Part shown: positions 1-3,658 of the stretch, one piece after another
Layout of the letters: every line of letters begins with the position of its first letter
How positions within the stretch are numbered: the first letter of the stretch is position 1
DNA from: a virus
Lineage: Duplodnaviria; Heunggongvirae; Uroviricota; Caudoviricetes
DNA length: 4,404 bases
Virus record (IMG/VR): IMGVR_UViG_2690316231_000014
Direction: 5' to 3' (one strand)
Translations under genes and position numbers: made by a program
Notes under the pieces: generated by a model
Seen by the model: the letters and a program-made list of their open reading frames with translations, nothing else
Database searches by the model: none
What the model was told of the DNA's origin: nothing

Positions 1-834
1 CCACGGCACATCTGCAGCACTGCCACCATGGCACTGCGCGTTAAACACGGAGAGGTCAGCACGAAACTGTGTCAGCATGGCTGTAAACAGCGCAGGTTGC
101 TGTGCGTGGGTGGCGGCGCTCATGTCAAACTCACCCTGCATCCAGCAGACGGCCAGCAGAACGTTTTTGGGATTTTTCTGCAATGCCGCTTTTGTGCGGG
201 AAATCAGATCCTGATATAACGGCTTGCCCACCCCCCAGCGTGCCGAATCCTGACTGGCCCCCGTGGACTCGCTGAATGTCCCCTCCGCGCCCTGGGTAAA
301 TGCCGAACCACCACGACAGCATGGTACCAGCAGGATCCCCGCGTTATTCGGGATATACGGGAGCAGTTTTTTGGCAATATGTAAACCCTGACCGACACAG
401 CCGTACTGCCCTTTGCTCAGGTCAGCCCTCGGATGATTCAGCGTACTCATATCCTGCACATCATGCAGACAGTGGTCAGCCGGAATAATATCGTTATATC
501 TGCAGGCAGCCCCGCCCGGCGTCACTGTACTGCGGCGCGCCAGCTGTTTAATGCGCGGATCCGGAGCATCGTATGAATCCGGCAGCGGAAGCCCTTCACC
601 GTAAGCCATGGCATTGGACTGCCCGGCCAGTACGATGACGTAGTACCAATCCGGCTCAGATGAAGGGCCGACCTGTGGCTCTCCTTCAATAGCCACCGCC
701 TGCATCAGTGTGTACGGCGTAATGGCAACCGGTCCGCCGTATGGCTGCCAGCCCTCTTTCAGTTTGTGTGTCAGCTTTTCCGCAAGGTCTGACGGCGACG
801 CCGCCCTGACAACATCGTAATGTTTAATCGACAT
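1..834 (-). CDS. Partial CDS (N-terminal 278 codons; continues beyond position 1): prophage NanS-p-like sialate O-acetylesterase, SGNH/SASA-family hydrolase with a DUF1737-like N-terminus
   Basis: Hand translation of the minus strand from ATG at 834..832 is open for 278 codons to the window edge, which is why it is missing from the ORF track. It begins MSIKHYDVVRAASPSDLAEKLTHKLKEGWQPYGGPVAITPYTLMQAVAIEGEPQVGPSSEPDWYYVIVLAGQSNAMAYGEGLPLPDSYDAP. A GGGAG Shine-Dalgarno (forward 842-846) sits 7 nt upstream of the ATG. GQSNAMAYG is the block-I catalytic-serine motif of SASA/SGNH sialate O-acetylesterases. From memory, the N-terminus and overall architecture match the esterases encoded downstream of stx in Stx-converting phages. 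The four short ORFs in the track over 28-488 are in other frames. Confidence 0.75.
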   Translation of the reverse strand, partial: MSIKHYDVVRAASPSDLAEKLTHKLKEGWQPYGGPVAITPYTLMQAVAIEGEPQVGPSSEPDWYYVIVLAGQSNAMAYGEGLPLPDSYDAPDPRIKQLARRSTVTPGGAACRYNDIIPADHCLHDVQDMSTLNHPRADLSKGQYGCVGQGLHIAKKLLPYIPNNAGILLVPCCRGGSAFTQGAEGTFSESTGASQDSARWGVGKPLYQDLISRTKAALQKNPKNVLLAVCWMQGEFDMSAATHAQQPALFTAMLTQFRADLSVFNAQCHGGSAADVPW

Positions 835-920: not shown

Positions 921-947
921 AAAAAAAAGGCTGCGCAATGCGCAGCC
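921..947 (-). terminator. Rho-independent terminator for minus-strand transcription (8-bp GC-rich stem, 3-nt loop, U8 tract)
   Basis: Forward 929-947 is GGCTGCGCAATGCGCAGCC, a perfect 8-bp stem (GGCTGCGC/GCGCAGCC) with a 3-nt loop. On the minus strand it is followed immediately by eight T (forward A8 at 921-928). There is no T-run after the hairpin on the plus strand, so it is unidirectional. Confidence 0.7.
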
Positions 948-1376
948 AGAACTCACAAGGAAAATGATAAAAGGAATAACACTAGTGATGTACGCATGGC
1001 GCCTCCCGCTAAGTTCTGCAATGATCAAACAGAACTCGCTACGTGCCCTTAAAACTCGATCATTTAGCCCCTCCAAGGAGGATTCACCATGCGGTTGATT
1101 TTTTAATAAACAGTAAACAAAAAAGTCAAGAATTATTCATTCTGTTCTTTCATCATCGGCCACAGCAATACCACAATGCCGCAGACCAGAGCGCCATCAG
1201 TCAGTACCAACATTATCCTGCTGGTGAAATCCATCATCACCATCACTAAAAGCAGGATCACAACAGCAAGCAGACACAGTTTATAAAACAATGTTCAGAA
1301 AACGCATTCAGCATGCCTAAGGTTCTATTCCTACGAATAGCCAACTTGCAACTTAAAATATTATTTATGCAGCCAA

Positions 1377-2135
1377 TTAAATTCTGGTCCTTACAATATC
1401 AACCTGAAGATTCTTATCTTGTGCTGATTGATAAATGACAAACCTTTTACTACCTGCATTGAAAGAAGTAGACAAAACCAGACAATTATCATAACGAGCA
1501 AGAACATAATACCAACCATCATTATAATTAATCATTTCATATTCTTTCTTAAACTGTGGTTTGTAATATCCTGTCAGAAATGAAAAAAGCCAAAAATATG
1601 CCACAAAAGCAATCATCACAATCTCAAAAAAATGTTTTTTTATAAATGGCTTATCATAGAAGCATGATACCGATAAAAATCGCCCATAAGATCTTATCGA
1701 AATTGTAACCGCCAGCGCAATCGCTGCTGACAGTAGCAAAAGAGGTACCTGAATCTTCTGTCTCAATATAGAAAACTCAATAATTGCCGGCACAAACAAT
1801 AATTCCACAGCAAAATAAAGGCGAAATACATTTAGCTCTTGCATAGAATGTTTTCTTTTCACTGCGAAAAAGAATACAACACCAATACCCCAACCGATAA
1901 GAAATATAGCAATGACGATAACTGCAAAAAATAAACTTCTGGCAACATCATCAACACCTGCACCTACAATCCACCATGGGAAGCCGTAGTAAAAAGAAGT
2001 ACCCCATCCATAGAAATAAGCACTCCCCCATCCAAGGCATCCCATGTAGGCAATAAAAAGTGAAGAACTCCTGAGCAGCGCACCATCCTTCATAACCACC
2101 CCAATACAAGATGATAACATTGGCTTACAACTCAT
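1377..2135 (-). CDS. Hypothetical multi-pass inner-membrane protein with a ~60-aa hydrophilic C-terminal domain; AT-rich cargo (moron) gene of unrecognised family. Start uncertain: ATG 2135, or ATG 2093 preceded by GGGGTGG
   Basis: A 252-codon ORF on the same strand as Q, about 160 nt downstream of the pR'-like promoter. No competing ORF of 60 aa or more is reported on either strand across this 759 bp despite its AT-richness. By eye there are 5-6 hydrophobic segments (GWGSAYFYGWGTSFYYGFPWW, LFFAVIVIAIFLIGWGIGVVFFFAV, VFRLYFAVELLFVPAIIEF, VPLLLLSAAIALAVTISI, FFEIVMIAFVAYFWLFSFLTGYY) and then a polar C-terminal tail. Hand-counted G+C in sampled 60-nt blocks is 25-37%, against about 50% in Q. 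The first ATG has no Shine-Dalgarno. Confidence 0.6.
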   Translation of the reverse strand: MSCKPMLSSCIGVVMKDGALLRSSSLFIAYMGCLGWGSAYFYGWGTSFYYGFPWWIVGAGVDDVARSLFFAVIVIAIFLIGWGIGVVFFFAVKRKHSMQELNVFRLYFAVELLFVPAIIEFSILRQKIQVPLLLLSAAIALAVTISIRSYGRFLSVSCFYDKPFIKKHFFEIVMIAFVAYFWLFSFLTGYYKPQFKKEYEMINYNDGWYYVLARYDNCLVLSTSFNAGSKRFVIYQSAQDKNLQVDIVRTRI

Positions 2136-2279
2136 AACAAAAGCAATTCAATGCCGTCAAGAGGTTACAGGCTAAAAAAACTCTATTACATTGCAGTCAG
2201 CATGTTTACTACACAAATACAATTCAGAGCATAAAAACTACTCGGCGGCAGGTTATTGAGACTCATCAATGACATGTAA

Positions 2280-2335
2280 AAAACGCCCATTATTGGTGTC
2301 AAGTTTCCCCAAAGTTATTCAAAAAGTCAATATTA
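2280..2335 (-). promoter_or_regulatory. Lambda-like late promoter pR' with Q-utilisation (qut) region
   Basis: Directly after the Q stop the minus strand reads GATTGCCACGGATGGCAACATATTAACGGCATAATATTGACTTTTTGAATAACTTTGGGGAAACTTGACACCAATAATGGGCG. From memory this aligns with lambda pR'/qut. The -35 TTGACT is at forward 2330..2325, the spacer is 17 bp, and the -10 position reads GAAACT (2307..2302) where lambda has TAAATT. A -10-like AATAAT lies in the initial transcribed region, as in the lambda pause-inducing element. Confidence 0.55.
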
Positions 2336-2372
2336 TGCCGTTAATATGTTGCCATCCGTGGCAATCATGGCG

Positions 2373-2996
2373 CTAACGTGTGATCGCATTCAAAATGTTG
2401 TCTGCGATTGACTCTTCCTTGTGGCATTGCACAACCAGAGCGTCATACAGCGGCTTAACAGTGCGTGACCAGGTGGGTTGGGTAAGGTTTGGGATTAGCA
2501 TCGTCACAGCGCGATATGCGGCGCTTGCTGGCATTCTTGAATAACCGACGCCTTTACATCTTCCGCACTCTTTCTCAGCAACTATCCCCCACTGCTCTGT
2601 TTTGGCTATATCAACCGCACGGCCTGTACCGTGGCAATCTCGGCATCTTGCGCCCGGCGTAGCGGCACTACGGCAATAATCCGCATAAGCGAATGTTGCG
2701 AGCACTTGCAGTACCTTTGCCTTAGTATTTCCTTCAAGCTTTGCCACGCCACGGTATTTCCCCGATACCTTGTGTGCAAATTGCATCAGATAGTTGATAG
2801 CCTTTTGTTTGTCGTTCTGGCTGAGTTCGTGCTTACCACAGAATACAGCCATTCCGAATCCGGCTTGTGATTGCGCCATCCCCATAGCAGCCATCACATC
2901 AGTACCGGAAAGAGAGTCAGAAGCCGTGGCCCGTGGTGAGTCGCTCATCATCGGGCTTTTTGGCGAATGAAATTTAGCTATGCTTTCGAGTCTCAT
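2373..2996 (-). CDS. Q: Late-gene antiterminator Q (lambda type)
   Basis: Complete 207-codon ORF, ATG 2996..2994 to TAG 2375..2373. The translation ([44 protein letters not shown] ... [18 protein letters not shown]) is, as recalled, near-identical to phage lambda Q. It carries the paired Cys cluster CRDCHG ... CGRCKG. The start overlaps the upstream stop (ATGA) and it is followed by pR'/qut. Confidence 0.95.
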
Positions 2997-3658
2997 GCGC
3001 CTTCTCCCTGTACCTGAATCAATGTGAGGTTTCCGCAGAACACTGCGCCAGTATCGATATACATCTGGTTGGCAAATTTGAGTGGTTTCACTGCTGGCGT
3101 ATGACCAAAGATGAACGTGTCCGCGCCTTTGATTTCTTTCACGATCCCGTCTTGTGAGTTGCTGATTCGTTCGCGGTTCCAGATTACCTGCTGATGATCA
3201 ACTGGCTTTCCAAACTCGTATTTATCACAAGGATAATCGGCGTGGCAGATGACATATTTTTTTCCTTTACTCACCAGTTCGATGATTAACGGAAGTTCAT
3301 CTGCTTTATGGGCAAGAGCTTTAGCCAGAATTTCTTTGTCGTAATCGAGATTAAAGAACCAGCCACCGCCATTAAGCAGCCAGTGATTGACGTTTCCACG
3401 CTCTGATAAGCCATCAATCATCATGTGCTCATGGTTTCCACGTACAGCTCTGAACCAGGGGAATGTGATTAATTCCAGGCATTCTACGTTCTCTGTACCG
3501 CGATCAACCAAATCGCCCACCGAGATAAGCAGGTCTTTTTTGGTGTCGAATCCTATCGTCTCCAGTTTTTTCATCAGGTTCGTGTAGCATCCGTGCAGAT
3601 CGCCAACTACCCAAATATTTCGGTATTTGCTGCCATCAATTCTTTCGTAGATATTCAT
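2993..3658 (-). CDS. Serine/threonine protein phosphatase, PPP-family metallophosphatase (lambda orf221/NinI-like)
   Basis: Complete 221-codon ORF. The PPP-family signature motifs are read directly: GDLHG, GDLVDRG, RGNHE. Most of the protein ([18 protein letters not shown] ... [26 protein letters not shown]) matches lambda protein phosphatase as I recall it, with a divergent first few residues. ATGA overlaps occur at both ends (with ninG at 3655-3658 and with Q at 2993-2996). Confidence 0.95.

Follow-up and report, generated by a model that had tools for sequence, protein, structure and literature searches.

The DNA analysed here is a 4,404-nucleotide (nt) stretch, hereafter the window, of a tailed phage of the class Caudoviricetes (IMG/VR record IMGVR_UViG_2690316231_000014). 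It raises a simple question: what is the AT-rich block of about 1.3 kb that separates the antiterminator gene Q from a NanS-p-type esterase gene, and how did it come to lie there? A reading of the sequence alone had taken the block for horizontally acquired cargo in a lambda-like backbone. All coordinates below are positions in the window, and the island as defined by homology spans 952-2286. Every gene lies on the minus strand, in the order NinG, NinI, lambda-type Q, pR'/qut, island, and esterase. We find that the block is very probably a horizontally exchanged moron cassette in the lambdoid late-operon cargo slot, between pR'/qut and the esterase and lysis genes. It holds what is likely a two-gene membrane-protein operon (orf238 and tciB) as well as pasD2, a small RNA (sRNA) gene with its own strong intrinsic terminator.

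Composition, boundaries and distribution of the block

The compositional contrast was computed over the whole window. In 200-nt sliding windows, the G+C content was 28.5-39% over approximately 1100-2400, 45-55% in Q and the nin genes, and 52-62% in the esterase gene. The island contains 37.8% G+C and the remaining 3,069 nt contain 50.8% (chi-square 62, p = 2.9e-15); the interval first marked out, 960-2340, contains 37.7%. A maximum-likelihood segmentation with two breakpoints placed the block at 1096-2350 (36.5% G+C inside, 51.0% outside), with a log-likelihood gain of 36-38 that exceeded all 100 shuffles (mean 4.5, maximum 10.4). The earlier spot counts were reproduced, with 60-nt blocks within 1377-2135 holding 14 to 32 G+C (mean 21.9) and blocks within Q averaging 31.1. 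Both stretches beside the central open reading frame (ORF) are AT-rich, as had been stated (38.3% for 1100-1376 and 37.6% for 2136-2300), but the former is not intergenic, since it holds tciB (1291-1133). The change in composition had also been described as sharp at both ends; it is sharper on the Q side, but on the esterase side it is gradual (41-49% over 835-1132).

Alignments to lambda, 933W, and other lambdoid phages mapped the breakpoints and bore out the claim that pR'/qut is kept on one side of the block and a NanS-p-like gene on the other. Lambda and approximately 40 phages of the HK97/HK022/P22 type match Q and the promoter/qut segment, and these matches end at 2298-2286. Homology to phage 434 starts at 2254 and runs leftwards at 98-99% identity. 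At the far end, homology resumes at 951 for JLK-2012 and at 847, 13 nt ahead of the esterase start, for 933W. Phage 2B8 matches nearly the whole window (4341-1), with 97.4% identity overall and 98.5% over 840-2340. Among 50,697 phage records, the block is carried by 434 and 2B8 only, and its flanks are matched by 511 records. The block was also found in 682 of 5,426 complete Escherichia coli genomes, heavily in O157:H7, O26, O111, O45, O55, and enteropathogenic E. coli (EPEC).

The neighbours of the block differ among its copies. Of the complete E. coli genomes, 572 have the junction with lambda-type Q and pR' and 620 have a Q82-like junction; O157:H7 strain PV15-279 has both. The copies in 434, O157, and EPEC prophage PP2 follow a Q82-like Q, and those in the window, 2B8, EC12, O26 11368, and EPEC prophage PP4 follow a lambda-type Q. 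The esterase gene lies downstream of the cassette in the window, 2B8, 434, EC12, and EPEC PP2. In O157 86-24, O55 DEC5E, and O26 11368 it is deleted beyond approximately codon 8, where homology stops (window position 810), and a holin gene is next. Judging by these junctions, the cassette reassorts independently of the Q side and of the esterase side. Breakpoints, patchy distribution, and reassortment with two types of Q all agree with the proposal of horizontally acquired cargo in a lambda-like backbone.

The same cassette, at 98-100% identity and with the gene order and downstream esterase of the window, is found in 434 (OL657226, CPT_434_68 to _70), 2B8 (NC_049952 gp58-gp59), and EPEC PP2 (E2348C_0686, E2348C_0687, and pasD2). 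Elsewhere the slot has other occupants: three tRNA genes, stx2AB, and STnc100 in 933W, and three tRNA genes, TerB-type tciA, tciB, and STnc100 in JLK-2012. The order in 933W is Q, pR', tRNAs, stx2AB, STnc100, AsxR, nanS-p L0105, and lysis genes, so that the slot position is that of the window. Also alike are the sRNA of the STnc100/PasD family at the downstream end of the slot and a conserved hairpin before the esterase gene, described below. In contrast to 933W, the window has no toxin gene, another type of Q, and no tRNA genes (these were sought in the window, as known from 933W and JLK-2012), and in 933W several terminators are annotated between pR' and the cargo.

A moron, in the concept of Hendrix and Juhala, is an extra cassette between the backbone genes of a lambdoid phage. 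The block resembles one in being present in some phages and absent from relatives that share its flanks, in its distinct composition, in having its own terminator (947-929), and, from EPEC data on identical copies, in being expressed in the prophage. It is unlike a classical moron in that it also holds an sRNA gene and that an autonomous promoter for its protein genes is only a candidate.

Three other origins were weighed against this one. The dip could merely reflect what is encoded, a hydrophobic membrane protein and AT-rich spacers, with no foreign origin. Content does contribute, in that the orf238 product has five transmembrane (TM) segments and is rich in F, Y, I, and L, and its amino acids alone, encoded with the codon preferences of the neighbouring genes, would bring G+C from about 51% down to 45.4%. 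In addition, tciB is far less deviant (43% G+C) and is not AT-rich at synonymous sites, with 58% G+C at third codon positions (GC3). However, the observed G+C of orf238, where the dip is deepest, is 36.1%, far under the expectation, and its GC3 is 30.1%, compared with 49-62% in neighbouring genes; its hydrophobic amino-acid content accounts for part of the dip only. All examined relatives of orf238 have 35-42% G+C in every host, the block is missing from nearly all phages that share the flanks, and the homology breakpoints are sharp. GC3 together with presence and absence largely refutes the content-only explanation, which we regard as very improbable.

Alternatively, the block could be conserved late-leader backbone of lambdoid phages and not cargo at all. 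Its place is that which in lambda holds the 6S leader, orf-64, and untranslated DNA ahead of S. An STnc100/PasD-type sRNA recurs here in phages of the Shiga toxin (Stx) type, and such a description is partly true for the sRNA and terminator end only. For 1100-2286 it is refuted by the stop of lambda and its relatives at the Q-side breakpoint, the confinement of the block to two phages, and the different genes that 933W, JLK-2012, and other prophages hold in the slot, and as an account of the whole block it is scarcely credible. Insertion by a transposable element or a site-specific integrase would fit the insertion sequences and transposases that are common near PasD2 loci (bioRxiv 10.64898/2026.05.13.724894), and in 2B8 a "mobile element protein" is encoded downstream of the esterase gene. 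Against this, the block holds no transposase or integrase, the search for flanking direct and inverted repeats found only chance 10-13-mers, and the Q-side junction varies by Q type around an identical interior, as is typical of lambdoid mosaic recombination. With neither repeats nor a transposase, the cassette therefore appears to have arrived by such recombination, and we regard insertion by a mobile element as highly unlikely.

The genes that flank the island are as follows.

1..834, minus strand: NanS-p-type esterase (DUF1737 and SASA domains), N-terminal 278 codons, running off the window; one flank of the island
2373..2996, minus strand: lambda-type antiterminator Q, 207 aa (Pfam Antiterm PF03589, E = 4e-58); the Q-side flank, outside the island
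3658-2993, minus strand: NinI phosphatase
4266-3655, minus strand: NinG

The Q gene has approximately 96% DNA identity to lambda Q and a G+C content of 50.8%. The esterase gene (57.2% G+C) encodes matches to the Pfam families DUF1737 (E = 8e-16) and SASA (E = 1e-13) and has homologues in 434, 2B8, JLK-2012 (yjhS), and 933W (L0105); the approximately 300 nt between it and tciB contain no credible ORF. Copies of the locus that lack the esterase (O157 86-24, O55 DEC5E, and O26 11368) have the PasD1-type arrangement. At the junction of NinG and NinI (3655-3658), ninH is precisely missing and the two genes overlap (ATGA); the lambda alignment skips lambda 43044-43232, the stretch that holds ninH, and the same adjacency is annotated in the O157 86-24 and O26 11368 copies. 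In 434 (locus L002, 4553-5512) and in O157, O55, and EPEC-PP2 prophages, a truncated lambda-type Q is followed by lpxR and then by a complete Q82-like Q, an arrangement that resembles the scar of an earlier Q-module replacement just upstream of the cassette.

The genes of the cassette

The features of the cassette are listed here.

1377..2093, minus strand: orf238, membrane protein, PF27470 "TfpB"/"STM1630 family"; AT-rich core of the island
1133..1291, minus strand: tciB, 52-aa protein with two TM segments (DUF3927), TTG start
921..1092, minus strand: pasD2, Hfq-dependent prophage sRNA, 172 nt, by identity to the mapped EPEC PasD2
957-952, minus strand: predicted seed UGUGAG of pasD2, complementary to the CUCACA target motif
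Stem 947-929 and U8 run 928-921, minus strand: pasD2 terminator (-16.8 kcal/mol, z -4.3)
1098..1129, minus strand: candidate pasD2 promoter, read by eye, with a -35-like TTGACT (1129-1124) and an A/T-rich -10 region TATTAAAAAAT (1108-1098)

The block thus holds more than one gene, and the sequence-only reading of its contents had missed pasD2. The window is identical to the E. coli E2348/69 locus (NC_011601) over 231/231 nt, which maps PasD2 to 1092-921. PasD2 is NC_011601 741157-741328, between E2348C_0687 (a 159-nt gene) and the esterase E2348C_0688, and lies downstream of a 717-nt gene in that strain (PMC8550237). The identity of 1092-921 to PasD2 (PasD1/PasD2, EcOnc13) includes the seed UGUGAG and the U-tract terminator. 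In EPEC, PasD1 and PasD2 were validated by Northern blot, their stability was reported to be Hfq-dependent, and RIL-seq, which ligates and sequences interacting RNAs, found them paired with core and virulence mRNAs (PMC8550237). Synteny of PasD2 with Q, LpxR, and the sialate esterase, downstream of Q and upstream of the esterase, has been described (bioRxiv 10.64898/2026.05.13.724894), and the gene order of the window fits this arrangement.

STnc100 has been linked to PasD in the same study (bioRxiv 10.64898/2026.05.13.724894), and Rfam has no separate family for PasD. Our full-length match to Rfam RF02076 (STnc100), over 918-1122, scored 41.4 bits (E = 1e-6) against a gathering threshold of 47; by Rfam's rule, the sRNA predicted in the window is a relative and not a member. 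The STnc100 scores of 933W (208 bits), JLK-2012 (107), and another prophage (L016, 81) pass the threshold. Because these genes lie in the same slot, the sRNA end of the block can be considered a semi-conserved fixture. The variable cargo proper is therefore approximately 1100-2286, which agrees with the statistical segmentation. The hairpin before the esterase gene, GGCTGCGC-loop-GCGC(A/G)GCC (window 929-947), is conserved even in 933W, with AsxR and a separate full STnc100 gene upstream of it there. At the homologous sites compared (L001, L003, L006, L007 of O157 86-24, and L009 of O26 11368), the A/G difference swaps U-A for U-G and the pairing is kept.

The candidate pasD2 promoter sits just upstream of the PasD2 5' end estimated from RNA-seq and was not called by the consensus scanner; it may, on this weak evidence, drive the gene. 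The 10-mer TTGACTTTTT occurs at the pR' -35 (2321-2330) and just upstream of pasD2 (1120-1129), and this recurrence is probably a chance match, though both copies lie at promoter positions. In the 434 record, a 62-aa "membrane protein" is annotated at the position of pasD2 (ORF 1076-888 in the window; CPT_434_70, "putative membrane protein", locus L002 7905-8093). We rejected this ORF as a gene because it overlaps pasD2, crosses the pasD2 terminator, has no family match, and, in the O157 and O26 copies, loses its frame to a 1-nt indel. RefSeq genomes carry an annotated pseudogene on the opposite strand over pasD2. Both this pseudogene and the 434 ORF are probably mis-annotations.

The first in-frame ATG of orf238 is at 2135 (252 aa), and the RefSeq start corresponds to its codon 15 (238 aa). 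The product matches phrog_1521 (E = 2e-154), the precomputed PF27470 label was found on 108/108 of its database homologues, one of them 100% identical, and the copy in strain EC12 is named "STM1630 family protein" by RefSeq. It had no match in the Pfam-A and NCBIfam copies that we searched, which hold no model for the family. A PDB sequence search found nothing, there was no informative PDB neighbour, and none of the three window ORFs, orf238 included, matched the PADLOC defence-protein models. The AlphaFold2 model predicts five TM helices, with a five-strand beta domain at the C terminus (pTM 0.71); the predicted local distance difference test (pLDDT) was poor at 62 with 24 close homologues and reached 77 when 17 distant homologues were added. 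Within the gene, 1984-2031 is a 24-nt tandem duplication (75% identity) that encodes the most conserved motif of the family, GWGSAYFY/GWGTSFYY, forming an 8-residue repeat within the first TM region.

The orf238 family is very small, with 72 representatives in a set of 1.84 billion proteins, and is limited to Enterobacteriaceae, with distant members in animal-associated Neisseriaceae (Neisseria) and Pasteurellaceae, all annotated as hypothetical. STM1630 of Salmonella Typhimurium is 46% identical to orf238 over the full length and has the same architecture of five TM segments and a beta domain, and both are AT-rich. It lies in a horizontally acquired spot beside sseJ and, unlike orf238, is chromosomal, not in a prophage, and without a tciB or PasD neighbour. 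STM1630 is reported to be co-regulated with Salmonella pathogenicity island 2 (SPI-2) and macrophage-induced. Other members lie divergently beside the heat-labile enterotoxin genes eltAB on plasmids of enterotoxigenic E. coli (ETEC), beside lpxR in Citrobacter rodentium, and beside iroBC and bor/iss. Another slot of the Stx-phage type has the order Q, methylase, tRNAs, STnc100, TfpB homologue, lpxR, and nanS-p, with pmrD after lpxR in one of three loci. Literature searches under TfpB/PF27470 and TciB/DUF3927 returned only papers on type IV pilus TfpB, chemistry, or Trypanosoma. The Pfam name "TfpB", whose origin was not traced, may go back to tfpB, an ORF of the pilin inversion region in Moraxella.

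The second protein gene, tciB, matches Pfam PF13064 with 53 bits against a gathering cut-off of 25 (E = 3.4e-14) and phrog_1470 "TciB-like" (E = 2.5e-17), and RefSeq annotates the same coordinates as WP_000499454.1, "DUF3927 family protein". The PHROGs label for TciB-like proteins is "inhibition of cell division or resistance to colicin". We rejected TciB as an obligate partner of the orf238 family, as STM1630 is followed by an unrelated small ORF and the ETEC copies lack one.

The late promoter, terminators and transcription

The elements that bear on transcription into the cassette lie at its Q-side edge.

2287..2330, minus strand: late promoter pR' and qut, where the backbone ends ahead of the island, aligning to the lambda pR' region
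2330-2325, minus strand: -35 TTGACT, followed by a spacer resembling the Q-binding element
2307-2302, minus strand: -10 GAAACT
2294-2289, minus strand: pause element AATAAT
2227..2254, minus strand: degenerate terminator remnant, at the edge of the sequence common to the 434 and O157 copies

By alignment, the segment has a putative lambda-type pR'/qut layout, with -35 and -10 elements, a 17-nt spacer, a Q-binding element, and an early -10-like pause element. The hexamers were assigned from the lambda alignment and from textbook knowledge of lambda pR'. Matching records of the HK97 family annotate 2287-2330 as "promoter / similar to lambda Qut site". The lambda terminator tR' lies at about +194. 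In the window, a scan of the minus strand between approximately 2290 and 947 detected no terminator-like site, finding only the hairpin at 947-929. The stretch from pR' to orf238 folds no better than shuffles (z 0.05), and a riboswitch or structured leader there was therefore rejected.

The 434 version of the left-edge terminator, AAACCCGCTGCCGAGTGGG followed by T8, has a folding energy of -13.3 kcal/mol (z -3.4). The window version, AACCTGCCGCCGAGTAG followed by T5, has no hairpin before the T-run (-4.6 kcal/mol, z -0.5). The terminator is kept in the Q82-type copies (434, O157, and EPEC-PP2), and its hairpin is lost in the copies with lambda-type Q (the window, 2B8, EC12, O26 11368, and EPEC PP4). 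In lysogens, pR' is constitutive (PMC7547250). With a decayed terminator, no other terminator before 947, an unstructured leader, and an always-active pR', read-through from pR' is therefore possible. The proposed mechanism would run as follows: in the lambda-Q version, the terminator that divides pR' from the cassette in Q82-type copies would have decayed, the always-active pR' would read through orf238-tciB and stop at the pasD2 terminator, and this terminator would serve as the functional tR', which Q-modified polymerase would pass to enter the esterase and lysis genes. We hold read-through from pR' that ends at the pasD2 terminator to be a tentative proposal, with chances somewhat below even. 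It has a parallel in StxS, an sRNA made from the constitutive pR' of Stx phages by early termination (PMC7547250), where an always-on late promoter likewise yields a product expressed in the lysogen, upstream of a Q-controlled terminator. The product proposed for the window differs from StxS in that a 1.3-kb mRNA would encode two membrane proteins and have its end at the pasD2 terminator.

Published measurements from an identical cassette give indirect support for transcription of the protein genes and PasD2 in uninduced lysogens. In RNA-seq of uninduced EPEC, the DESeq2 BaseMean of orf238 was 226 for the PP2 copy and 147 for the PP4 copy, although reads cannot be assigned between these two near-identical copies; the values for other genes were 37 for tciB, 6 for lambda-type Q, 3.5-5.4 for the holins, 102 for the esterase, and 11,017 for pasD2 (PMC8550237 Table S2). 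Per nucleotide, orf238 (0.2-0.3) and tciB (0.23) are equally represented, and a single operon therefore fits. Both are 10-20 times above the late genes, and the cassette therefore behaves as a lysogenic-conversion module.

Expression, function and meaning of the cassette

Several observations weigh against one part or another of the reading given above. Some of the AT-richness is due to the hydrophobic amino-acid content of orf238, and other members of the orf238 family occur without TciB. Deletion of STM1630 was reported to cause no macrophage-replication defect. The -10 (GAAACT) of the window pR' and its qut (4 mismatches in 21) differ from those of lambda, and the consensus scanner called no promoter upstream of orf238 or pasD2, where the promoter-like sites seen by eye (approximately 2160-2125 and 1129-1098) are weak. 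Finally, the PP2 copy in EPEC, which lies behind an intact terminator, is read at least as much as the lambda-Q copy in PP4, which points to an internal promoter or to reads common to the near-identical copies.

The PP2 counts speak for an account with the same cassette and a different source of transcription, in which orf238-tciB has its own promoter within the island and pR' adds nothing in the lysogen, owing to Rho-dependent termination or to silencing of the AT-rich DNA by H-NS. Classical morons bring their own promoter, and a candidate (TTGACG-N18-TGtTATGAG, at approximately 2160-2125) has a -35-like TTGACG and an extended -10-like element that do not differ among the copies. This candidate lacks the conserved final T of the -10 and escaped the scanner, the EPEC counts of 226 and 147 come from reads that cannot be divided between the copies, and no terminator separates pR' from the ORF in the window. 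We consider autonomous expression a serious contender, though not a probable one.

Small inner-membrane prophage proteins expressed in lysogens often act in superinfection exclusion or abortive infection, and the membrane pair could be such a device, shielding the lysogen from other phages. The PHROGs label of TciB-like proteins would suit this role. So would the finding that in JLK-2012 and P1-like phages tciB is paired with TerB-type tciA, whose family has been connected with resistance to phages and colicins. However, there was no PADLOC match, the orf238 family is not confined to prophages (members adjoin sseJ in Salmonella, lpxR in Citrobacter, and eltAB on ETEC plasmids), and STM1630 shares the regulation of SPI-2, and we regard a defence device as unlikely. 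A role in the envelope or in host interaction is favoured over phage exclusion because of the lpxR, pmrD, iss, and sseJ neighbourhoods, the co-regulation with SPI-2, and the restriction to animal-associated hosts. On this view, orf238 and TciB may be an inner-membrane lysogenic-conversion factor for the envelope or host interaction and not for phage replication, which we judge to be plausible without reaching an even chance.

Much of this locus is already known. The sequence is present in 434, 2B8, and hundreds of genomes, PasD2 has been published, the family has a Pfam entry, and AT-rich morons in this slot are textbook material. What is added here are the exact boundaries of the block, the recognition of pasD2 within the island, a likely mis-annotated ORF in 434, and the lambda-Q copies without the early terminator. 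The practical gain is a corrected annotation and not a new kind of element.

A simple compositional signal correctly flagged cargo in the medically important slot between Q and the lysis genes, which is the home of the Shiga toxin genes. Here it is occupied by a non-toxin cassette found in approximately 13% of the complete E. coli genomes, mainly in enterohaemorrhagic E. coli and EPEC, and PasD2 ranks with the most abundant sRNAs bound by Hfq in EPEC, where it pairs with virulence mRNAs. Two further implications are more doubtful. The TfpB family, which turns up repeatedly in AT-rich DNA next to cargo of the stx slot, eltAB, sseJ, lpxR, pmrD, and iss/bor, and in animal-associated Proteobacteria only, may be an unrecognised factor of the envelope or host interaction. 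Separately, loss of the early terminator in lambda-Q copies might let pR' drive the TfpB/TciB pair in the lysogen, with the pasD2 terminator doubling as tR', the Q-controlled gate for the late operon as a whole. If this is true, induction would turn on the lysis genes and simultaneously alter the formation of the PasD2 3' end.

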